A DNA stretch of 64,000 nt from Candidatus Hydrogenedentota bacterium (GTDB lineage: Bacteria; Hydrogenedentota; Hydrogenedentia; Hydrogenedentales; JAEUWI01): positions 64,001-128,000 of the forward strand of contig JAXMOL010000002.1 of assembly GCA_034669905.1 (NCBI GenBank). Direction: 5' to 3'. Within the stretch, counting starts at the first letter, position 1. Each line of letters starts with the position of its first letter. Both the position numbers and the translations under genes were made by a program. Below the pieces are notes generated by a model. It did not search any database. It had not been told where the DNA came from and worked only from the letters and a program-made list of their open reading frames with translations. Shown here in pieces: positions 46,098 through 57,118 of the stretch.

Positions 46098-46372
46098 GAT
46101 AAACCTCGTATAGTTGGCAGGCGATCACCGGGGAATTTCGACGACACAAAAAGGATGGAGCCGTGATCGCAGGCCACATCGCTATCCGCTCTGGGTGGAA
46201 GGAAGTGCACAGAACATGCGGGGTGCGGCACCCAGAAACCGTGGACCCAGTATACGGCAGCGCCCATTTTCCGCGCAAGCATGACCTGTTTGCAAAGCCA
46301 CTGTTGAAGCGTTACCATGGTGGAAGGGAATGCTGTTTTCACCGTGTACAATATCTGGAGAGAGGTATTATC

Positions 46373-47875
46373 GTGGCTGTTTTCGTAATGGGTACGGGTG
46401 CGCAGCACTCGCTTCAAAATGTCGTTGCACTCTTGGAAAAACAGCTATTGCGCACGCAGGGAATCCCCCGACGCATCAACGCCTGGAGTGGTAACTTCCG
46501 GATGGAAGCAGAGCGTGTCGACTTCGAGTCGCCCTTCTGTCGTTTCGTCGTTTTTCTGCCGGAAGATTGGCCCGACATCGCCGCACTTGAAGAAAAAGCC
46601 CGGAGTCTCGCACCCTATGGCGCGGTCTCGCACAATGAGGATAACGTCCAGTTTTCCTTCGCACCGCCCGAAGGCGAAGGACCAGAGAAAACGCTTGAAG
46701 CCTTCGATGCCTTCGCGGCCGAATTCACCCTCCCGGAAGTGTGGCGGGCAGAGGGCGACAAATACCGCCTCGACCACATCAGCGCCGAACTCCTCTTCAA
46801 GGCTATCATCCAATACCGTGCCAGTGACGTACACCTTTCCCCCGGCGTGAGTCCTGTGTTCCGCATCGACGGGGAGACGCGCTCCTCCGATCTGCTGGGT
46901 CCCCTTTCCGCCGTTCAGATTGAAAGCCTGATTCGCGAGATATGCCTCGACGAAGCCTGGAAAGAATTTGAACTGACCCGGCAAACAAGTTTTAACTACC
47001 ACCAGTCGGGCCTGGGGTATTCCCGCGTATCGGCCTTCGTCAAATCGGGCGCGCCCCATTGCACGATTCGATTCCTACCGGAGACCATCCCCAGCTTTGA
47101 GGAGCTTCACGTTCCGAAAGATACCATGGTCAAGCTGGCCGAACTCCACCGGGGGCTGCTCCTCGTAACGGGCATGACCGGCAGCGGTAAAACGACCACT
47201 GTGGCCGCCCTCATCGACTGGATCAATTCCACCCGATCCAGTCATATTCTCACCATCGAGAACCCCATCGAGTTTGTGCATACCAATAAGAAGTCTATCG
47301 TCTCCCAACGAAACCTCGGCCTGGATGTGGACTCGTTTTATGACGCCGTCACCGGCGCATTGCGCCATGACCCCGACGTCATCCTGATTGGTGAAATGCG
47401 GGACCCCGATACCATCCGGTCGGCCATCAACGCGGCGGCCACCGGCCACCTGGTGGTGAGTACGCTCCACGCCAACACGGCAGCCGAAGTGGTGAACCGG
47501 GTGCTCAGCTTCTTCGATCCCATTGAGCGCGACCTGGTGAAACTCCAGCTGCGCGACTGTCTCCAATGCGTTATCTGCCAACGCCTCGTCCCCAAACTCG
47601 GGGGTGGCCGCATACCCGCCCTCGAAATGATGCTCAACGATGTAAAGGCCATCGCCGATGGCATCATGGAAGGCAGCACCGACCACATTCGCATCGGGAT
47701 GCAGCAAACGGTTTCCCACTCCTTCCTCTTCGAGCACTACCTCCATAATCTGCTGAAGCAACAGAAAGTCGATCTGGCCCACGCCCAGGAGTTTGCCACC
47801 GACCAGAGCATGCTCGACCAGATTCGTATGGGCACCTACGCCGTACCCCGCTTGGAAGGCGTGCGCGCACACTAA
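46373..47875 (+). CDS. PilT/PilU-family ATPase with N-terminal extension
   Basis: ASDVHL, GMTGSGKTT, TIENPIE, LRHDPDVILIGEMRD and TGHLVVSTLH motifs; GTG start after GGAGAGAGG. Confidence 0.85.
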   Translation: MAVFVMGTGAQHSLQNVVALLEKQLLRTQGIPRRINAWSGNFRMEAERVDFESPFCRFVVFLPEDWPDIAALEEKARSLAPYGAVSHNEDNVQFSFAPPEGEGPEKTLEAFDAFAAEFTLPEVWRAEGDKYRLDHISAELLFKAIIQYRASDVHLSPGVSPVFRIDGETRSSDLLGPLSAVQIESLIREICLDEAWKEFELTRQTSFNYHQSGLGYSRVSAFVKSGAPHCTIRFLPETIPSFEELHVPKDTMVKLAELHRGLLLVTGMTGSGKTTTVAALIDWINSTRSSHILTIENPIEFVHTNKKSIVSQRNLGLDVDSFYDAVTGALRHDPDVILIGEMRDPDTIRSAINAAATGHLVVSTLHANTAAEVVNRVLSFFDPIERDLVKLQLRDCLQCVICQRLVPKLGGGRIPALEMMLNDVKAIADGIMEGSTDHIRIGMQQTVSHSFLFEHYLHNLLKQQKVDLAHAQEFATDQSMLDQIRMGTYAVPRLEGVRAH

Positions 47876-48182: not shown

Positions 48183-49703
48183 TCAGCCGGCCGACGTGAC
48201 CCCCGACCCCAAGGCCGGTACGGCATCTTCCGCGGCGGCGGGAACGGGCGGGGGCGTCGCGGCTTTCTTGCGCGCCAGATGGCGCAGACGGTGGATAATA
48301 ATCGCCTCGTTGCGAATGGAAACCGTCAGCGCAATCATGAACCAGTAGGGCTCCATGATGCGGACGATCAAGAATGAAATCGTGCCGAAAGAGTGGACGA
48401 TAAGGGCCGCCGTGGCCCCAAACATGCCCAGGGCAATACCCCGCGCCATCCAATCTTCCGTCCAGCGATACGCCTGGCGGGTCGTACGAAGCACCTGGAC
48501 CAATAAGAAGACAAACGCAACGAGCCCTACCACCCCGGTCTCGAGCAATACCCGGGCGTATTGGCTGTCCAGCACCGACTCCCACGAGACCCCGCCGCCA
48601 AAGAAAAAGAACTGGGGCCCCAGACTGAGAATAAACCCGACCTTTCGCCAGACGTGGACGCGCTCATAGGTGGACTTGTCGACGTTCACGCCGAAATCCC
48701 GGCCAGCTACGACCAAGTCACGGCCCCCGTCTTCTTGTATCGTATAGGCCACCCGCTCGATGACCTCCGCCGGCATGACCAGGGTGGATGAGGCGAGCAA
48801 AATGGCAATGCCGAGCAGTATCAGATACTTTCGGCTCATCAATGCGATAACCGTGAAGCCGACCAGCAGGGCCACGTAAGAAGCGCGCGAGAGCGTATAG
48901 AGCAGGGGAATAAACCCGATGGCGACCACGAAAAAATACACGCATTTCAGGCGTAGCTTTTTCGCCTGTAGCGCCAAGCCCAATGCCACGCAAAGACAAA
49001 TAACCAGATAGCCCCCCAACGTGTTCGGCTCCGTGCCGCCCTTTTCAAAGGGTGCACTCACGCGGGGGGTCGTCCCGATGCTGTAGATGCCATAGCCACT
49101 CACAATCAACATGACGATGAAGAACAGCAGGATCGGAGAACGAAGATCTTTGGACGCCCGTACGGAGTGGGCCACCATGAAAAAGATGAGATAGAACTCC
49201 AACATCTTTAACATGACGAAGAAGGCCGTCCGCTTATCCCACGCGGGCAAACTCCGTTCGTATGCCAGTATGGTCGCAAAAACACACACCGCAAAATAGG
49301 CGACGATGCCCGAGTTAATGGGACTTGGCTGCCAGAGGGCCAGTCGCCCCTCAAAGGTCAGCTTAATCATGACGCCAATGAAGATGACAATGATCAGCAG
49401 ATCGTCATAGCGGATATTGAGACTTCGATCGCCATTGGCCGCAGGCCGCAACTCGATCTCCGGCGACAACAACATGGCAATAATCAGGATAAACAGACCG
49501 AGTTCGACGCGGACAACCGTGCCGCCAAAGACCACCATGCTCACGGCCAGCGCCGCGGTGAGGCTGTCATTCCCCAGAATCAGGTGCTGGGCCACCAGAA
49601 TCATGCTGCTGAGGAGCATGAAGGCGGCGAAAATCGGGACTTCCAGTTGACTCTCGGCAACTTCACCACGACCGATTCCGCGCTCTGATCGGAAGAATGC
49701 CAT
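48183..49703 (-). CDS. O-antigen ligase / Wzy-type polymerase family protein
   Basis: Many TM segments; EPNTLGGYL, TLSRASY and DSQYARVLLETGVVG motifs. Confidence 0.8.
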   Translation of the reverse strand: MAFFRSERGIGRGEVAESQLEVPIFAAFMLLSSMILVAQHLILGNDSLTAALAVSMVVFGGTVVRVELGLFILIIAMLLSPEIELRPAANGDRSLNIRYDDLLIIVIFIGVMIKLTFEGRLALWQPSPINSGIVAYFAVCVFATILAYERSLPAWDKRTAFFVMLKMLEFYLIFFMVAHSVRASKDLRSPILLFFIVMLIVSGYGIYSIGTTPRVSAPFEKGGTEPNTLGGYLVICLCVALGLALQAKKLRLKCVYFFVVAIGFIPLLYTLSRASYVALLVGFTVIALMSRKYLILLGIAILLASSTLVMPAEVIERVAYTIQEDGGRDLVVAGRDFGVNVDKSTYERVHVWRKVGFILSLGPQFFFFGGGVSWESVLDSQYARVLLETGVVGLVAFVFLLVQVLRTTRQAYRWTEDWMARGIALGMFGATAALIVHSFGTISFLIVRIMEPYWFMIALTVSIRNEAIIIHRLRHLARKKAATPPPVPAAAEDAVPALGSGVTSAG

Positions 49704-49771
49704 GCCTGTCCCTTATCCTGTCCACACGGCGCACACACCAACACGGTGCGGGCCGGAATTCGCGCGATCGA

Positions 49772-52018
49772 TTAGAAGTGGTACCACTTGCGGCGGCCCG
49801 ACGACCCATCGTCATAGTAGTAGTAATAGTAGTAGTAGTGGCGGCGGGTCGTTTCCAGCCCGTTCACCACGACGCCGGCCACGGCCACCTTGGCCGTCGA
49901 CAGCAGCTTCTTCGCACGAATAACCGTTTCCCGGCGCGCATTGTTCGTCGACACGACCATCATGCAGGTGTCCACGTGGGTGGCCAGCAAGACCGGGTCC
50001 GTCACGACCAGCACCGAGGGCGCATCACAAATTACCAGGTCGAATGCCGCACCCAGCTGGTCCATCAACTCCGCCATGTGGTCCGAACCGATCAACTCGG
50101 ACGGGTTGGGGGGCACACGGCCGCTCGAAATAATCCAGAGATTGTCGATACGTGTAGGCCGGATTACGCTCTTGGAATCCACGCCCTCGCGCAACACATC
50201 AGCAAGCCCCGGGCCCCGTTCCATGCGCAACACGCGGTGCACATTGGGACGGCGCAAATCGGTGTCAACAATGAGGACCCGCATGCCCCGGTCGGCCATG
50301 GTTACCGCAAGGTTTACCGCCGTCGTCGTCTTCCCTTCACCCGGCACTGCGCTCGTCACCATTACCGTCTGGGGCTTGTCCTTAATGGTGGCAAACTGAA
50401 AATTGGTCCGCAGGGTTCGGTAGGCTTCCGAAATCGGCGACTTCGGGTCATGCTGCGTAACGATGCAGGAGTCGATTTGCTCCTCATCGACGGTACTGAC
50501 ATAGGTGGCCCGTCGTCTTCGCCCACCTCGGGGACGGCCAAAGCGCATCCGTGGAATCGTGCCGATCACCTCGAGGCCAATATACTCGTTAACATCCTCG
50601 ATACTTCGAATAGACGTATCGTTGTACTCCGTGACCATCGCAAAAACGAACATCACGATGAATCCAATAAGCCCGCCAATGGCAAAGTTGACCCACTGCT
50701 GACGGCTACCCGGCACGCCCATGGGCACCGCGGCCGCAATCGCATCTTTCCGCTCGACTGAGCCTAAGCCCCGCTCGATGTCCCGGCGAATTTCCATCTC
50801 CCGGTCGGAATACTGATTGAGGCGCTCTTCAATGTTTTCCACTTCGCGCTTCAGGCGATCCGAATCCACCTTGAGATTGGCCAACTCAGGCACGCGGGGA
50901 ATTAACTCTTCCCGCTCCTTCTTGATCGCCTGTTCCCGCAATTCCAGCCCCGTCATCTGAAGGCGGATTTCGATTTGCTGGCGGTAGATTTCGTTGCGCT
51001 TCACCCAGATATCGCTACCCCCTGGAACGCCCGAAGACTTCTGCTTCTCCGCTTCCAGGATGAGGGCCTGGGTCTCGGAAATAAGCTCTTCCAATTCAAT
51101 CAGGCGGGGCCAGCTGGGCTGATAAATGGCACTAAGGGTGAGCTTTTCTTCCAGCAGTTTATCGAGGTCCGCAAAGAGGCCGGTCACCAGGTTATCACTG
51201 GGCTGATTCAACGATTCCGAAAACTGTTCTGAAGCCAGCGCCAACTCCGCGTCCAGCTTGTTCAGCTTTTGCGTCGCCGCCACCTTGCTGACTTGAATCT
51301 CACGCAGCTCCCGCTCTTTCTCAGCCAGGCGCTGATCAATGTCTTCGTAGTCCTGGAAGCCGTGGGCCTGCATGAATTCCAGGCGCGCCTGCTCCGCTTC
51401 CGCCAGCTCATCCCGGAGAGACTGGATGATGCCTACCGCATCCTCGTGGCTATGCTGGGCCAATTCCAGATGACGGTGCCGATTCACTTCCAGAAAGGCG
51501 CGGGTCGCAATTTCGGCGATGGCGTTCGCCTCTTCGGCGGTCTCGCAGCGCTCCACCAGAATCTCAATATGCTGATCGCCCTGGGTCGCGATCCGTATTT
51601 TGCCTTGAATCGAGGCGACCAGGGCACGAAATTCGGCGGGGGAAACCACGTTGCTGGTGCGCCCTCCTGTCGCCACATCGGTCTGAATCAGGGCGCGGGC
51701 CACCTCTTCCGACAGGGCGTTCAGGCTCGTGCGCTCCACCAGACTCTCCGCCGTCATCACATATTGGGAAGGAGGCGACTTCGACATAATCCGGCTGGAG
51801 CGACCATCGGCAATCACGAGCTTGCCCGAGGTGCTGTATAAGGTTTCCGAGGTCTCCTGGGTAAACCAGGCAACGCCACCAAACGCCAACGCACCAAAGA
51901 GGGCGCCCAACAATAGGAGGAGCCAACGTTCGGAAATGACATTCCACAGAAATCGGAACTGATTGTCCTGGTTTTCCCGCGTCGTGTCTTCCAATACGGG
52001 TGCGTCTATACTCGACAT
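49772..52018 (-). CDS. wzc: Wzc-type polysaccharide co-polymerase / tyrosine autokinase
   Basis: Two TMs around a coiled coil; EAYRTLRTN, GEGKTT, DTDLRRP and DAPS motifs; C-terminal run of 8 Tyr. Confidence 0.92.
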   Translation of the reverse strand: MSSIDAPVLEDTTRENQDNQFRFLWNVISERWLLLLLGALFGALAFGGVAWFTQETSETLYSTSGKLVIADGRSSRIMSKSPPSQYVMTAESLVERTSLNALSEEVARALIQTDVATGGRTSNVVSPAEFRALVASIQGKIRIATQGDQHIEILVERCETAEEANAIAEIATRAFLEVNRHRHLELAQHSHEDAVGIIQSLRDELAEAEQARLEFMQAHGFQDYEDIDQRLAEKERELREIQVSKVAATQKLNKLDAELALASEQFSESLNQPSDNLVTGLFADLDKLLEEKLTLSAIYQPSWPRLIELEELISETQALILEAEKQKSSGVPGGSDIWVKRNEIYRQQIEIRLQMTGLELREQAIKKEREELIPRVPELANLKVDSDRLKREVENIEERLNQYSDREMEIRRDIERGLGSVERKDAIAAAVPMGVPGSRQQWVNFAIGGLIGFIVMFVFAMVTEYNDTSIRSIEDVNEYIGLEVIGTIPRMRFGRPRGGRRRRATYVSTVDEEQIDSCIVTQHDPKSPISEAYRTLRTNFQFATIKDKPQTVMVTSAVPGEGKTTTAVNLAVTMADRGMRVLIVDTDLRRPNVHRVLRMERGPGLADVLREGVDSKSVIRPTRIDNLWIISSGRVPPNPSELIGSDHMAELMDQLGAAFDLVICDAPSVLVVTDPVLLATHVDTCMMVVSTNNARRETVIRAKKLLSTAKVAVAGVVVNGLETTRRHYYYYYYYYDDGSSGRRKWYHF

Positions 52019-52021
52019 CGC

Positions 52022-53500
52022 CTAGTCCTTTCGCACTTCCGCACGGGCTTCAAGCGCGGCCAGAAACGGATCGGTATGGCCAAAGCCATCCATATCCAGA
52101 CTGCGCTCCCACCGAATATCTTCCGGCCGATCATGAATCGTCGGCGTAACAAAAATCATCAATTCGCGGCTGGTGCGCGTACGCTCTTTGTGCTTGAACA
52201 GGTTTCCGAAGATGGGAAGATTGCCCAGGCCCGGGAGCTTTTGAATCACCGTGTGGTTGTCGGCCATCACGATACCGCCGATCACCAGGGACTGACCATC
52301 CCGCACGATGCGCTGGCTGTTGCTGCTGCGCAGGGCGCGCACGGGCACCCCATTGGAAACGCCAACCGCGGTGGACACTTCGGGGGCCAACTCCACCAGG
52401 ACGTAACGTCCCCCATCTGGATCGCGGCGCACGTGGGGCACCACTTCCAACACAATACCAATCTCCAGGAACTGCACATTTTCGACGGAAGAAAAGCCGG
52501 CCGTCCCGACTTCGGAATAGGGAAACTCTTCCGTCATCCGAATCGTTGCCGGTTTGTGGTTGACCGTACCCACATAAGGGGACGCCAACAACTCGGCTTT
52601 GTCGTCGGCCACGAGGGCATCCAGCATGACCCCCAAATCGATCCCGCTGTTCATGTACCCGAGAAACATCTGGCCCGGGGCAGCGACCTGAACCGGTACC
52701 TGAAGGCGCCGATCAAAGTTTGCTTCATCCAGGAAACGACGGCTGGGCCCCCCGCCCCGATTACCGGTATCGAGTGACTCATTGAATTCAGGACCCACGG
52801 ACTGACGAATGGAGGTCAGCAGGGCATCCTGCCGCGGTGGTGGCGTGTATCCACCGCCCGCATGGTCTCCCTGGACGAACCAACGGATACCCAACTCTTT
52901 GGCGGCCGCCGTTTCCACTTCCACGATCTTGGACTCAATCAGCACCTGGGTAATCTGAGATTCCATCTGGTCCAACTCGTGGATGACGGAAATCATGTTT
53001 TGAAGAATCCCCGATTCGTCGGTCAGAATCAGGCTGTTGGTGTTGGGGTCGAAGCTGACGCTGCCACCAGCCGATGACATGCCATTCAGCGCTTTTTCCA
53101 GGCCGCCGGCGTCGGCATTATTCAAGGGGATAACCTTGGTCTGCATCGACTGGGTCCGCATGACGCCACCGGGAAGGGCCATAGCGCCCTCGATGCTTCG
53201 GGAAACGGTGACCCGCGGATTTTTCAGGATACTCTTGAATCCCATGGAGACCCGTGCTCCGGCATCATTCAGACTCAGCCCCTTCAAGGTGACGTTGCCA
53301 ATATACGGCAATTCCACGTTGCCCTGGCTGTCTATCTGGGTGGTCGTCGAAAGTTCCGGCTGACGATGCACGTTGATATACACCAGATCCCCGGGTTTCA
53401 AAAAATCCTCTTTCATCGGCTCGGCCGCAAAAGACGGCCCGCCGAGACAAAGGCAGACGAAAAGGGGAATCAGGGTGAACCGCGTTGGCAGGCTTAACAT
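52022..53500 (-). CDS. Poly_export (Wza/OPX) domain fused to secretin N and secretin domains
   Basis: LKPGDLVYINV..PELS..GNVELPYIG..LKNPRVTV; then PLNNADA..DPNTNSLIL; then QVLIESKIVEV, GIVLEVVP, DGQSLVIGG and LPGLGNLPIFGNLFK..ELMIFVTP. Confidence 0.85.
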   Translation of the reverse strand: MLSLPTRFTLIPLFVCLCLGGPSFAAEPMKEDFLKPGDLVYINVHRQPELSTTTQIDSQGNVELPYIGNVTLKGLSLNDAGARVSMGFKSILKNPRVTVSRSIEGAMALPGGVMRTQSMQTKVIPLNNADAGGLEKALNGMSSAGGSVSFDPNTNSLILTDESGILQNMISVIHELDQMESQITQVLIESKIVEVETAAAKELGIRWFVQGDHAGGGYTPPPRQDALLTSIRQSVGPEFNESLDTGNRGGGPSRRFLDEANFDRRLQVPVQVAAPGQMFLGYMNSGIDLGVMLDALVADDKAELLASPYVGTVNHKPATIRMTEEFPYSEVGTAGFSSVENVQFLEIGIVLEVVPHVRRDPDGGRYVLVELAPEVSTAVGVSNGVPVRALRSSNSQRIVRDGQSLVIGGIVMADNHTVIQKLPGLGNLPIFGNLFKHKERTRTSRELMIFVTPTIHDRPEDIRWERSLDMDGFGHTDPFLAALEARAEVRKD

Positions 53501-53564
53501 GAGTTTTCACTCCACAGGGTTATCTGTTACCGGGCCTCCCTGAGGGACGGACTCCGGTTTTTGA

Positions 53565-55622
53565 CTATTGGGTTGGACCCGGCGCTACCGGGGCAGCATC
53601 TACGGCATCTACGGCCTCCACGGCCCCGTCGGTGCCCTCAGCACCTTCCGGCACGGTAACTACTGCCGGAAACTCCGCCATAGGATTCTCTTCACGACTT
53701 TCGGCACCGGCTTCTGGCATTTCTTCCGGCATGACCTCCGGTGCTGCCTCCGGTGCGGTCTCGGCCGCCGGGCTACTATTCTGCCCCGCCGCTTCCGCCT
53801 CCGGCACCTGACCTTCCTCCACCGCCCCGGTTTCTTCGTAGCTCAGCCATTCCAGGTTCTTCTGCAACTCCGCCTTCATACTCGGCTCGATACCTGGGAC
53901 CTGGATAGCCCGTTGCCAATAGGACGCCGCGGTCTCCATAAAGGCTTCCCGGTCAGCGTCCGATGTCGCCAGATCGGCACGGACCTTAAACATCTCCCCG
54001 AGGCTGCGAAAATCCTGATCCACCGAATAGTTCCCCGGCAGGTAGGCGGCCTGAAGATAGGCGCTCTCTGCCGCGTCATACTCCGACTTCTGGCTATAGG
54101 CCCGGGCGAGATAGCGCAACATGGTCAGCGCTCCCTGGGGGTCGTTGGCGGGATCAGCCTGATCACGCAACAGGGCAATCGCCTTGTCGTAGTCGCCCAA
54201 TTCATAGTAGAGCCGACCCATAATCGTTTCCGCACGGGTCCGTTTGCGGTGCAATGGATTCTCTTCGATAAAGGTGCTGAACCGTTCGACGGCCGCTGTA
54301 TAACGGCGGCGCATTTCATCCCGTGAGCGGATGTCGCCCAGGGTCAAGGCATAGGCCGCACGGAACTGGGCGTCCGCCAGGGCCACCGGGTCTGCCCCCA
54401 CTTTGTGGGCCAGATTGTCGTAGGCCCGCGAGGCTTCCGGATATTTCCCTTCCTTCATCAAGCGGCTGGCCTTTACTTCCAGGTCTTCAGCCCGCTGCAA
54501 TACGGGAGCGACCACATAGATGTAGCCCGCGACCACCCCACCCACAACCACGAACAGCAAGGTGATCACGCGGATTACCTTGCCGGCCCGCCGTCCACCC
54601 CGCGTATGGCGCTTGGAACGGCGTCGGGCAGGGGCGGCACTGTAATCGTAGGATAAATCGGCATCCAGCTCGGCAGATGCCGGACTGGTAGCACTGTAGG
54701 TGGGCAACAAACTCGGCGCAGGCACGGGCGGTGCCGCTTCTTCCGGGGGACGTTTCCCCAGGGCCTGCATCAATTGCTCGGCTTCGGCGAGTGCATCCCG
54801 GGAAGGCGCTTTTTGTGCGGGTTCCGGTGGCGCCGTCGCAGGAGCGGGCTCCGCTTCCGGGCCTTCCTCGATGGCGTTAACCCCTTCCGCCACGGAATCC
54901 AACAGGGAATCCCAGTCATCGGTCAGGGCCTGGTCCGCAACGGGCACTTCGGGTGTCGGCGCTGCTGGCACGTCGGGGCTATGGGGAACTTCTTCGGCGA
55001 CGGGAGGCGTGTCCGGTTGGGCATTAACCTCCTCGATCTGTTCCAACAGCGCCAACAAATCCGCTGACGGTGAGGAGGTTTCTTCCGGCTCAGGAGGGGC
55101 TTCCAGGGCAGGACGATAGGGTGCCGTGACACGCGTATCGTCCGGCACCTCTGCGAACCCCGACTCGAGGCCCGCTACAATATCCTTAAAGGCGTCTACC
55201 GACGAGCCCGTGACCGGAGCATCGCTGCGGAGGGTATCTCCCCCCCGATCCGGCACCAGATTGGCATCCAGGGTAACATCCGACAAGCCGCCCACAGCCC
55301 CATCACCCCCATCATCTACGTCGGCCACACCCTTCTCATAGAAACTCAGGGGAGCCGAGGGATTCAGGTCGTCATCGCTTGCCGTGTCTTCGGCAGGTGG
55401 GGCGGCCGGGGCGCTCTCGCGAACGGGCGCCCGAGTAAGCCCGGACATCTGAATAAAGTCGAGGGGATTGGCACGCTGCCCATCGGGCACGCCGCTGCCA
55501 AAGCGATCGTCGTCGGGCATCCCGGCAAGCAGATCACCATCGATCGCCTCCACGGCATCCGGTGCAAAGGGATCGTTCCCCTCACCCGAAAAACCATGCT
55601 CCTGTTCGGCACCTGGCGCCAT
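53565..55622 (-). CDS. Single-pass membrane protein: acidic disordered N-terminus, TM, TPR domain
   Basis: Asp/Glu/Pro-rich N-terminal half, basic patch then TM, TPR-like helices (MGRLYYELGDYDKAI); ATG immediately after the upstream stop. Confidence 0.75.
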   Translation of the reverse strand: MAPGAEQEHGFSGEGNDPFAPDAVEAIDGDLLAGMPDDDRFGSGVPDGQRANPLDFIQMSGLTRAPVRESAPAAPPAEDTASDDDLNPSAPLSFYEKGVADVDDGGDGAVGGLSDVTLDANLVPDRGGDTLRSDAPVTGSSVDAFKDIVAGLESGFAEVPDDTRVTAPYRPALEAPPEPEETSSPSADLLALLEQIEEVNAQPDTPPVAEEVPHSPDVPAAPTPEVPVADQALTDDWDSLLDSVAEGVNAIEEGPEAEPAPATAPPEPAQKAPSRDALAEAEQLMQALGKRPPEEAAPPVPAPSLLPTYSATSPASAELDADLSYDYSAAPARRRSKRHTRGGRRAGKVIRVITLLFVVVGGVVAGYIYVVAPVLQRAEDLEVKASRLMKEGKYPEASRAYDNLAHKVGADPVALADAQFRAAYALTLGDIRSRDEMRRRYTAAVERFSTFIEENPLHRKRTRAETIMGRLYYELGDYDKAIALLRDQADPANDPQGALTMLRYLARAYSQKSEYDAAESAYLQAAYLPGNYSVDQDFRSLGEMFKVRADLATSDADREAFMETAASYWQRAIQVPGIEPSMKAELQKNLEWLSYEETGAVEEGQVPEAEAAGQNSSPAAETAPEAAPEVMPEEMPEAGAESREENPMAEFPAVVTVPEGAEGTDGAVEAVDAVDAAPVAPGPTQ

Positions 55623-55623
55623 A

Positions 55624-56643
55624 TCAGCCCAATCCCTGATCGTGTCTGGCCCGCGCGGATCGCAACAGCAAATCGGCCGCGCGCTGGTCACGCGACTGCT
55701 GGTCTCGCACATTACGTTCCCGCATTCCGCCGGGTGCCACCGGTGCTACCGGGGCCGGTGGTCGAACGGATGCCCCGACAGCAGCGGCCACACGGGCACG
55801 CTTCTCGGGATCGGGCAACGTTGTCTTTTCAATCGTATGTAACACTATATCGTGCGTTATACGCTTGGTCTTTAGCTGGGCCGCCAACAGGAGGGAATTG
55901 CGGCACAGGGTCACCATGACCCGGGGGCTGCCCTCGGCATAAGCGTGAATCGCACGCAGGGCGCCCTCTTCAAACTCCGGTCCGATGCCTTCCTGGCTGC
56001 CTGCCTGACGCAATCGAAACGCAATAAACTGCTTGGCTTCGTCAAAATCGATGGGTTCCAGCGTATAGGTCAGGTTAATACGCTGCTCAAAATTCGGAGC
56101 CGCCTGGAGCACCTGCATCCACTCTAGCTGCGCGAAGAAGACCAGATTCAACAGCTTCTGCTGCTGGGTTTCCAGGTTCTGCACCAGCCGCAATAACTCC
56201 AGCTGGCCCCGCTTGTTCAGATTCTGCGCATCGTCGATGATAAGCGTACAAATCCGATTCCGGTTCTCCAGAAGGTGCTGGTTCAACGCTTCCATGTAGG
56301 CCACAAAGGATTGTTCCGCCGGACGCAATCCAAATTGCGCTACGATACTCTCCAGCAGGGCAAAGCTGGTCCAGGAAGGTATGGGCGACCCAATCACGGC
56401 CGTGAGATAGCGCTCGGGATCAGCGGCCATGCCGGTCATCAGCTTCCGCAACAAGGTCGTCTTGCCCGTACCATAATTTCCGAGCACCACCGCGATGCCA
56501 TGGGAGGCATCAATCCCATTCCAAAGGCGGTAAAGGCACTCTTTATGGCCCCGGGTGGCGTAGAAATACACCGGGTCCGCCGTGGGAGCAAAAGGTTGCT
56601 CCGCGAGACCCAGCTGCCTTAAATAGGTTTGCGTTCCATCCAT
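55624..56643 (-). CDS. ExeA/GspA-family AAA ATPase
   Basis: LGLAEQPFAPTADP, GNYGTGKTT, LIIDDAQNL and EGSPR motifs. Confidence 0.88.
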   Translation of the reverse strand: MDGTQTYLRQLGLAEQPFAPTADPVYFYATRGHKECLYRLWNGIDASHGIAVVLGNYGTGKTTLLRKLMTGMAADPERYLTAVIGSPIPSWTSFALLESIVAQFGLRPAEQSFVAYMEALNQHLLENRNRICTLIIDDAQNLNKRGQLELLRLVQNLETQQQKLLNLVFFAQLEWMQVLQAAPNFEQRINLTYTLEPIDFDEAKQFIAFRLRQAGSQEGIGPEFEEGALRAIHAYAEGSPRVMVTLCRNSLLLAAQLKTKRITHDIVLHTIEKTTLPDPEKRARVAAAVGASVRPPAPVAPVAPGGMRERNVRDQQSRDQRAADLLLRSARARHDQGLG

Positions 56644-57118
56644 GCGCGTATGCCTGTTCCAATCGGTGTAGATTCACCAAGCCCTCTGCTCGGCGGACAA
56701 TACGGACCCACGTTCAGAGCGCCCCCAAATTCAGAGGGGACCACAGCGAAGGGGGCATCCCTGCACCCTGCGACGTAATCTTGGCCATTGCGGGCAGACC
56801 TGCTGCCACTGCGCACCACGACGAAAGCGATTCGCCGCAAAATTCGGGTCCATGACGGGCCCGCAAATCACACCCACGCAGCAGCTAAGCGATTGATTTC
56901 AATCGATCTAGCCACTCCTAATAATACTCCTGCAAAACAGGACTGTCAACCGATTACCGGGACCTGTCCGATTTTGAGCCAGAGATCCGAAACCCCGCAA
57001 GCTGCGGAAAGGACGAATTTCAGCGTTCCATCGCTGAGACGACGCAGATCACAGGCCCGGTCCCTTGCTATACTGCGGCCCGGAAACGCCCCAAACCACC
57101 CCCCAACAGGAGTTTTTT

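Follow-up and report, generated by a model that had tools for sequence, protein, structure and literature searches.

A Protein Joining an OPX D1 Domain to a Secretin, Encoded beside a Wzc-Type Co-Polymerase in Hydrogenedentota: A Candidate Outer-Membrane Gate for Glycan Export

Introduction

Among known exporters that depend on a polysaccharide co-polymerase, the passage through the outer membrane is a Wza-type helical pore, a PslD-type small barrel, or an outer-membrane polysaccharide export (OPX) protein together with a separate porin. Secretins are large outer-membrane pores, known mainly for proteins and pili. Here, we describe a protein in which an OPX D1 domain and a secretin are joined in one chain. 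It is encoded in an operon with a Wzc-type co-polymerase gene, on a 64,000-nucleotide stretch of contig JAXMOL010000002.1 from a Candidatus Hydrogenedentota bacterium. This whole stretch is called the window below.

D1 is described as the contact with the co-polymerase in Wza-Wzc (PMC12881504), PslD-PslE (PMC13434223) and WzaB-WzcB (PMC12819527). The use of a secretin as a gate for exopolymer or slime has already been published for ordinary PilQ and GspD (PMC12475490). The Discussion of that paper leaves open whether secretins are the outer-membrane part of known polysaccharide pathways and how widespread this is. In Aeromonas, ExeAB assembles secretins via N0-N1, with ExeB binding N0-N1 (PMC4098917). 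In Sphingomonas LM7, the gene of an AAA+ ATPase, PrmE, is required for exopolysaccharide (PMC11340318).

Results

Domains and Fold of the Fusion Protein

An earlier note on this DNA had proposed a polysaccharide export machine encoded by five co-oriented genes between positions 48,183 and 56,643. The listing of open reading frames (ORFs) has five of them there on the minus strand (Table 1), and the distance from the fusion stop to the Wzc ATG was measured as 3 bp, as the note had given it. Its domain reading was confirmed as well: PF02563, PF03958 and PF00263 lie on one chain, all above the Pfam cut-offs. At E ≤ 0.1 no fourth Pfam family was found, which covers the SLBB repeats (PF10531, PF22461) and the Wza C-terminal helix (Wza_C) as well as STN and GspD-N0. 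The secretin domain starts near residue 185, ahead of its Pfam-matched part. A transmembrane (TM) scan located a hydrophobic segment at residues 8-26, which fits a signal peptide, and a crude lipobox-like pattern occurs in 1 of 110 aligned homologues. The same three families were found in 119 of the 120 best homologues, the exception being a 314-aa fragment, so the fusion is neither a chance event nor an assembly artefact.

Table 1. Features of the operon and of the fusion protein, with positions in the window.
Feature	Position	Strand	Basis or remark
ExeA-like AAA+ ATPase, 339 aa	55624..56643	-	PF13401, 64.7 bits
TM-TPR bitopic protein, 715 aa from first ATG	53565..55712	-	TPR Pfam matches at 469-555, TM scan
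OPX-D1/secretin fusion, 492 aa	52022..53500	-	Pfam, homologues, model, fold search
Poly_export (OPX D1, PES), residues 32-100	53201..53407	-	PF02563, 59.3 bits (cut-off 28)
Single secretin N domain, KH-like, N3 position, residues 121-182	52955..53140	-	PF03958, 50.3 (cut-off 28.2)
Secretin core, Pfam part, residues 295-455	52136..52618	-	PF00263, 117.2 bits (cut-off 27.5)
Wzc-type co-polymerase with tyrosine autokinase, 748 aa	49772..52018	-	TIGR01007, 179.9 bits (cut-off 108)
Wzy_C-family membrane protein, 506 aa	48183..49703	-	PF04932, 21.9 bits, below cut-off in hmmscan
Sigma-70-like promoter match, 11/12	56921..56949	-	candidate promoter of the operon, ~280 bp ahead of the ATPase gene

An AlphaFold2 monomer model of the fusion was built from 110 sequences. 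Its confidence was high at residues 31-100 (pLDDT 91-97) and in the N domain and low in a linker at 104-109, and the secretin part has long beta-hairpins; the orientation of the domains is not fixed, because the pTM was 0.52. In a Foldseek search with the whole model, secretins ranked first (GspD, E 1e-17). The first domain matched WzaB with an rmsd of 0.8 over 69 columns and Wza with 1.3 over 84. A model of D1 and the N domain was aligned to 48,161 structure chains. D1 (model residues 1-75) matched WzaB (9N9A) with Z 14.3 and an rmsd of 1.1 Å over 73 residues, Wza (7XFD) with Z 11.8 and 1.5 over 75, and Wza in a further match with Z 10.9. Secretin chains, including the N-terminal fragments of XcpQ and GspD, matched model residues 84-154 only, and the N domain gave Z values of 9-11 against the N domains of XcpQ, GspD and PilQ. 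An ordinary secretin N0/STN domain in first position, which the earlier note had allowed for, is ruled out by the Pfam absence and the fold match: the first domain is an OPX D1.

The rest of the protein has the features of the secretin superfamily, an N3-type domain followed by a C-terminal secretin domain, whose core is complete and conserved. The fusion profile matched GspD and PilQ chains at E values of 1e-51 to 1e-35, and the protein stays below the NCBIfam cut-offs for GspD (TIGR02517, 185.6 vs 351) and PilQ (TIGR02515, 179.3 vs 284).

A Conserved Basic Loop in D1

In Wza, an 11-residue loop is tied to gating, and its absence is associated with an open channel (PMC12819527). Alignments showed that D1 of the fusion is without this loop of E. 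coli Wza, as is WzaB. The loop before the last D1 strand aligns without gaps with the corresponding WzaB loop. Of the 110 aligned homologues, 96 have Lys at position 93 and the other 14 have Arg, and Pro95 is invariant. Lys93 aligns with the first Arg of the twin-Arg loop of WzaB, Arg106, where we matched the WzaB numbering to the Arg103-Tyr104 and Arg106-Arg107 of PMC12819527. Charge reversal of Arg106/Arg107 changed WzcB binding from ~4 to ~40 micromolar and blocked secretion (PMC12819527). The conserved Lys/Arg93 loop thus fits a docking surface that may have been retained.

Distribution and Gene Order in Hydrogenedentota

The phylum was taken as Hydrogenedentota from the names of the homologues (Candidatus Hydrogenedentes/Hydrogenedentales). 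The fusion was found in 67 of its 135 genomes (59 full-length, 8 partial or split) and was absent there from families f3 (0/23) and f8 (0/10). In the Atlas, one cluster of 57 has the fusion architecture, with Hydrogenedentota as the commonest taxon. A one-off fusion or an assembly artefact is therefore ruled out by the architecture of the homologues and the presence across the phylum.

Gene order was read at 60 of the 66 loci from other genomes (those of G069, G089, G005, G115, G127 and G044 were left out). The TM-TPR gene precedes the fusion at all 60 and the ATPase gene is present at 52, the remaining eight being contig ends. Wzc directly follows the fusion at 56/60 loci; the other four are contig ends, and it is never absent where there is room. 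The Wzy_C gene was found at 47 loci, with 12 contig ends and one absence. At all loci with room the fusion is flanked by the TM-TPR and Wzc genes, with no separate beta-barrel porin gene adjacent to it. Over the whole phylum, a Wzy_C orthologue is present in 66/135 genomes, all within the 67 fusion genomes (0/68 of the others). In G075, the sole fusion genome without one, the fusion is more divergent than in any other and Wzc has no Tyr cluster. These counts are descriptive, because kin are not independent.

Some loci appear to be in decay. The fusion and Wzc are both split at L164 (G042), and L163 (G075) combines the divergent fusion with a Tyr-less Wzc and no Wzy. Among the loci with the ATPase and without a fusion, L203 (G130) retains a Wzc with an eroded Tyr tail and has no Wzy.

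A Second Clade in a Glycan Context

A profile of the D1 and N region was searched against 1.84 billion representatives, and 42 of the best 150 matches were scanned for domains. The best 150 were mostly repeat-rich secretins or proteins with several D1 domains; among the 42 scanned, all those with both domains fall in two clades, and this search would not pick up a third clade with scores below ~100 bits. One representative, 33-34% identical to the Hydrogenedentota fusions, marks the second clade, and six clusters that share the three Pfam families were retrieved when it served as the query. One member comes from a taxonomically unassigned metagenome contig of 75 kb. Of 401 genomes sampled from the phylum to which G135, the source of an Omnitrophota-titled locus, belongs, one carries a relative.

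Both second-clade loci read contain genes for a histidine kinase, a response regulator, a TM-TPR protein, a 181-aa ORF, the fusion and a co-polymerase (Wzz and GNVR). In both, these are followed by a separate tyrosine kinase with a Tyr tail and then by Wzm, Wzt, methyltransferase-like, radical-SAM and many GT1/GT2 genes; the locus in G351 has an extra Wzy_C and Wzz gene upstream. No ExeA-like gene was found in the two stretches read. The second clade supplies the glycan context that the window lacks. Together with the Hydrogenedentota loci, it shows that the fusion is real and conserved in two groups of uncultured bacteria. Two further doubts of the earlier note, that the fusion might be unique to one assembly or its homologues unlinked to Wzc, are thereby removed, since Wzc or a split co-polymerase and kinase adjoins it.

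The second-clade TM-TPR protein (L185:704-3385, L179:7526-9418) has an odd architecture, with a Schlafen AlbA_2/RecG-C cytoplasmic region, a TM segment and periplasmic TPRs. The TPR match between the two clades (hhalign, 97%) may be generic. The Wzc-type co-polymerase and tyrosine kinase stand close before the Wzm/Wzt ABC transporter (L179:11631-17341, L184:14169-18496), which directly follows the kinase in L184; in L179 a radical-SAM gene lies between. This mixes parts usually given to different pathways.

A quick tree was made of 105 secretin domains, with even-numbered loci of the genome collection and 34 proteins of the second-clade search as outgroups. Each fusion clade received a support of 100, neither falls inside the sampled PilQ or GspD clades, and the two join at SH-aLRT 83 together with a long-branch paralogue. 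In a scan of the genome collection with the full alignment, 6/79 loci among the matches listed were fusion-like and the rest were ordinary secretins, which swamped the scan, so that it says nothing on the range of the fusion. At E ≤ 1e-21, with at most 10 candidates scored per genome and without a positive control, the fusion was not found in 351 genomes from the phylum of a Planctomycetales-titled locus (G138), nor in 301 from that of an Elusimicrobiota-titled locus (G137).

The D1 and N profile also matched unusual proteins (P0121-P0269). Many of them are 2,000-5,500 aa long with 12-34 secretin-N-like stretches, and others carry 3-7 Poly_export repeats fused to peptidase M56, sigma-70 or HEAT domains.

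Partner Proteins and a Separable ATPase Module

The Wzc protein has the features of a PCP-2a co-polymerase: TM helices at 32-50 and 445-463, a periplasmic part of ~394 aa, Walker A and a tail with eight Tyr. A profile of the periplasmic part matched PslE best (E 6e-11), and a single-sequence search of it against solved structures gave no match. The Wzy_C protein has ~12 TM segments, and one homologue exceeds the PF04932 cut-off.

The ExeA-like ATPase has neither a TM segment nor a peptidoglycan-binding domain, and thus departs from ExeA/GspA; it scored 156.6 bits with TIGR03015 (cut-off 324.5), and its profile matched solved structures only weakly, namely Cdc6. An orthologue is present in 88 of the 135 genomes, 22 of them without a fusion match. 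Nineteen of these 22 loci were read, and a paralogue locus in addition. The ATPase gene is followed in 11 of the 19 by a TPR-gene match, which is full, shortened or of the size of a peptide, and in 7 by none; one is a contig end. Since several genomes are incomplete and three loci lie at contig ends, not every absence is shown. The occurrence without a fusion match rules out that the five genes form one indivisible machine. Of the machine proposed earlier, the core of fusion, Wzc and Wzy holds, and the ATPase probably drops out as a core part.

The TM-TPR protein consists of a conserved N-terminal peptide, a long acidic Pro-rich linker, a TM helix (382-400) and the TPR domain. An Atlas search with the TPR region returned generic BamD/YbgF-like TPR clusters only. 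Met31 is invariant across 40 aligned homologues, so the start is more likely at 55622, 1 bp past the ATPase stop. The conserved cytoplasmic peptide at ~68-133 (window ~55310-55510, minus strand) lies within an otherwise disordered N-terminus and is a candidate ATPase-binding motif. In L198, L205 and L209 a peptide-sized remnant stands alone after the ATPase gene, as ORFs of 115-224 aa. In gene content, the ATPase and this peptide make up a module that outlives the fusion unit. Both persist without the fusion and the second clade is without the ATPase at the two loci read, so neither the ATPase nor the N-terminal stretch of the TPR gene is likely to belong to the core of the pore machine.

Promoter and Neighbouring Genes

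The gaps between the TPR and fusion genes and between Wzc and Wzy are 64 and 68 bp. Sigma-70-like sites numbered 2, against 3.3 expected in shuffles, so the candidate promoter rests on the quality and place of one match. A PilT/PilU-family ATPase gene with a long N-terminal extension lies convergent with the operon at 46163-47875 on the plus strand (TIGR01420, over cut-off). At 381-1871 on the minus strand the window encodes a 496-aa Asp/Asn/Gly-rich protein with a signal peptide and a terminal Phe, which is outer-membrane-porin-like.

Elsewhere, the same genome has a separate PilQ operon, a GspD operon and a classic ExeA with PG_binding_1. One ordinary OPX-Wzc locus contains exosortase and PEP-CTERM genes, and another a priming transferase, Wzy and a flippase; both OPX proteins match SLBB, unlike the fusion. 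Genome-wide there are 5 priming-transferase, 7 flippase and 10 Wzy_C matches, and flippases and glycosyltransferases are located only outside the fusion operon. A cluster with glycosyltransferase, flippase, Wzy_C and phosphodiesterase genes (L186:1881-17920; G000 C2, 45.9-61.9 kb) shares the contig of the operon at a distance of ~50 kb and lies just outside the window. No OPX or co-polymerase was found in it among the 50 of 83 called ORFs scanned, and it is a candidate glycan supplier for the fusion operon. At L178:554-3919 (G000 C8), a TPR gene is followed by a pair of neighbouring genes for very short secretin-domain proteins of 374 and 364 aa. They are without an N-domain match and possibly encode a heteromeric minimal secretin.

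Discussion

The joining of a docking domain to a secretin, directly before a co-polymerase gene, makes the fusion a likely exit route for sugar polymers, and we consider it probable that a glycan exporter coupled to the co-polymerase has the secretin as its gate in the outer membrane. In such a machine, D1 would take the place of the usual secretin N0 domain, and the secretin would form a gated outer-membrane pore. The D1 domains, on flexible linkers, would dock onto the Wzc arms. The polysaccharide, predicted to be assembled at the Wzc/Wzy complex of the inner membrane, would pass from the Wzc lumen through the N ring and the gate and out of the cell. We infer the docking, the multimer size and the cargo, as well as what the ATPase and the TPR protein do. 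The TM-TPR protein likely helps in secretin assembly or tethering, and the ATPase is likely an accessory or regulatory module. In a described state with one Wzc octamer on two Wza rings, four arms appear to be enough to hold a Wza ring (PMC12881504), which makes a symmetry mismatch a lesser obstacle.

If the pore is a secretin, it adds a further outer-membrane solution for co-polymerase-dependent export. It would also show how a gated pore of 12-15-fold symmetry is coupled to an eightfold inner-membrane ring, and that the N-terminal domains of secretins can be exchanged as adapters. Because the fusion is a single chain and its partner gene lies only 3 bp away, the question raised in PMC12475490 becomes directly testable.

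Several points weigh against an export gate. The operon is without a glycosyltransferase, flippase or priming transferase. Among the neighbour families, surveyed where they occur at two or more of the 60 loci, GT4 was found at just 2/60 loci and a flippase at none. The own genome already has two ordinary OPX-Wzc loci. Sequence does not distinguish the Wzy_C protein from a ligase or an O-glycosylation enzyme. Gene linkage among relatives is non-independent evidence, only two clades are known, and the tree supports their common origin weakly. The conservation of the D1 loop may be a structural trait shared by the whole family. The segment that we take to be the Wzc arm tip, located by a motif, is variable among the homologues, and the mismatch of ring symmetries has no solved example.

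An unlikely alternative is that the secretin ring anchors and clusters D1 and controls the Wzc kinase without any transit of polymer, with the ATPase and an HD-GYP gene as a c-di-GMP-linked circuit. It gains from a divergent FHA-GAF-HD-GYP gene, absent from the 64,000-nt window, which stands upstream at 37/60 loci (L111-L168; 12 absent with room, 11 contig ends); 35 of 38 FHA-GAF-HD sequences have the HD-GYP pattern. Class-3 OPX proteins also need tethering to the outer membrane to oligomerise (PMC12819527). This gene, however, tracks the ATPase and not the fusion, being adjacent in 12 of the 19 fusion-less ATPase loci, which suggests a separate c-di-GMP-linked module. A scaffold also does not agree with a complete, conserved secretin core, a Wzy-family gene that tracks the fusion almost exactly, and the lack of a recurring beta-barrel partner family among the neighbours at the 60 loci.

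Scarcely different in probability, and likewise doubtful, is a protein or glycoprotein route, in which Wzc is reused as an inner-membrane platform and the secretin passes a folded or glycosylated protein. The cargo could be, with the same small likelihood, for example an adhesin or a pilin-like subunit to which the Wzy_C-family enzyme adds the glycan. Secretins pass mostly proteins, the Hydrogenedentota operon has no sugar genes, and 18 of 38 Wzy_C members match the O-glycosylation ligase family TIGR03097, far below its cut-off. The convergent PilT-family gene of the window has the same place in 15/60 loci; by sequence likeness, it is also kept beside the ATPase-TPR pair in two loci without the fusion, and is thus not tied to the fusion. 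Against this route, D1 stands here in the place of N0, the domain on which protein-secretion platforms usually dock. No pilin, pseudopilin or assembly ATPase family is recurrent and co-oriented in the operon among the neighbours at the 60 loci, no pseudopilin or motor is co-transcribed, and the second clade sits inside large glycan clusters.

Uptake of an external polymer (polysaccharide or DNA) through the ring to the inner-membrane complex is very improbable: some secretins serve DNA uptake and the fusion has NCBIfam HofQ matches below cut-off, but the neighbours are biosynthetic (co-polymerase, kinase, Wzy_C, Wzm/Wzt, glycosyltransferases) and no hydrolase or importer family recurs among them at the 60 loci.

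Comparison with Known Systems

The earlier note knew of no characterised example. This holds for the fusion itself, of which no description was found in the open-access literature (bioRxiv supplements and subscription journals lay outside the scope), and a fusion-type exit route for secreted sugar polymers is likely undescribed so far. It does not hold for a secretin as an exopolymer gate (PMC12475490). The main text and six supplements of the OPX classification paper (PMC9603273) do not contain the word secretin; the paper lists Hydrogenedentes OPX proteins in 27 rows, 2 of which were covered here. No such fusion was found in passages of 10.1101/2022.04.04.486985, PMC7484181, PMC12419801 and PMC13721041.

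In the case of ExeA-ExeB of Aeromonas, the order of an AAA_22 ATPase and a single-pass membrane protein before a secretin is shared. Here, the ATPase is without a TM or peptidoglycan-binding domain, the partner has TPRs, and the N0-N1 region bound by ExeB is missing from the fusion. The AAA+ ATPases of exopolysaccharide clusters (TIGR03015; Sphingomonas PrmE) are possible counterparts of the operon ATPase.

With GspD and PilQ, among them the secretins of slime nozzles in cyanobacteria and myxobacteria (PMC12475490), the fusion shares the N domain and the secretin core. The OPX D1 replaces N0 and the further N or AMIN domains, scores stay below the family cut-offs, and platform, pilin and ATPase genes do not recur at the loci read. 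The nozzle secretins are described as ordinary T2SS/T4P secretins without an OPX domain, with their inner-membrane partners left open (PMC12475490).

Like Wza-Wzc (E. coli group 1 capsule/colanic acid) and PslD-PslE (Pseudomonas aeruginosa), the fusion gene adjoins a co-polymerase gene, and its Wzc has Walker A and a Tyr tail. Wza and PslD are lipoproteins that form octamers with SLBB rings, and their pore is helical or 8-stranded, whereas the fusion has D1, a secretin N domain and a secretin barrel, so that one chain would form both the D1 ring and the pore; wzb, wzx and glycosyltransferase genes are missing from the Hydrogenedentota operon.

The fusion is also close to the class-3 OPX translocons of Myxococcus xanthus (WzaB-WzpB-WzcB; EpsY-EpsX). 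The D1/PES fold is near-identical, and a short ungated first loop, a basic apical loop, the lack of a Wza C-terminal helix, a beta-barrel pore and a Wzc-type partner are shared. The fusion differs in having no SLBB (D2) domain, no lipid anchor pattern and, as predicted, a fused multimeric secretin pore instead of a separate single-chain 18-stranded barrel. It has the features of the OPX family, a Poly_export/PES (D1) domain and a co-polymerase neighbour (56/60 loci and 2/2 second-clade loci), and, without SLBB, Wza_C or a separate barrel, it does not match classes 1-3. The core unit is fusion-Wzc-Wzy, because the ATPase occurs in genomes without a fusion match. By analogy, the fusion would work like a class-3 OPX protein with the porin fused on. 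We lean slightly towards a fourth OPX class, in which a secretin, retargeted by D1 in place of N0, forms together with Wzc a gated, symmetry-mismatched channel that spans the envelope. It would carry glycans in two phyla, in one of them with a Wzy-family enzyme and in the other next to an ABC transporter.

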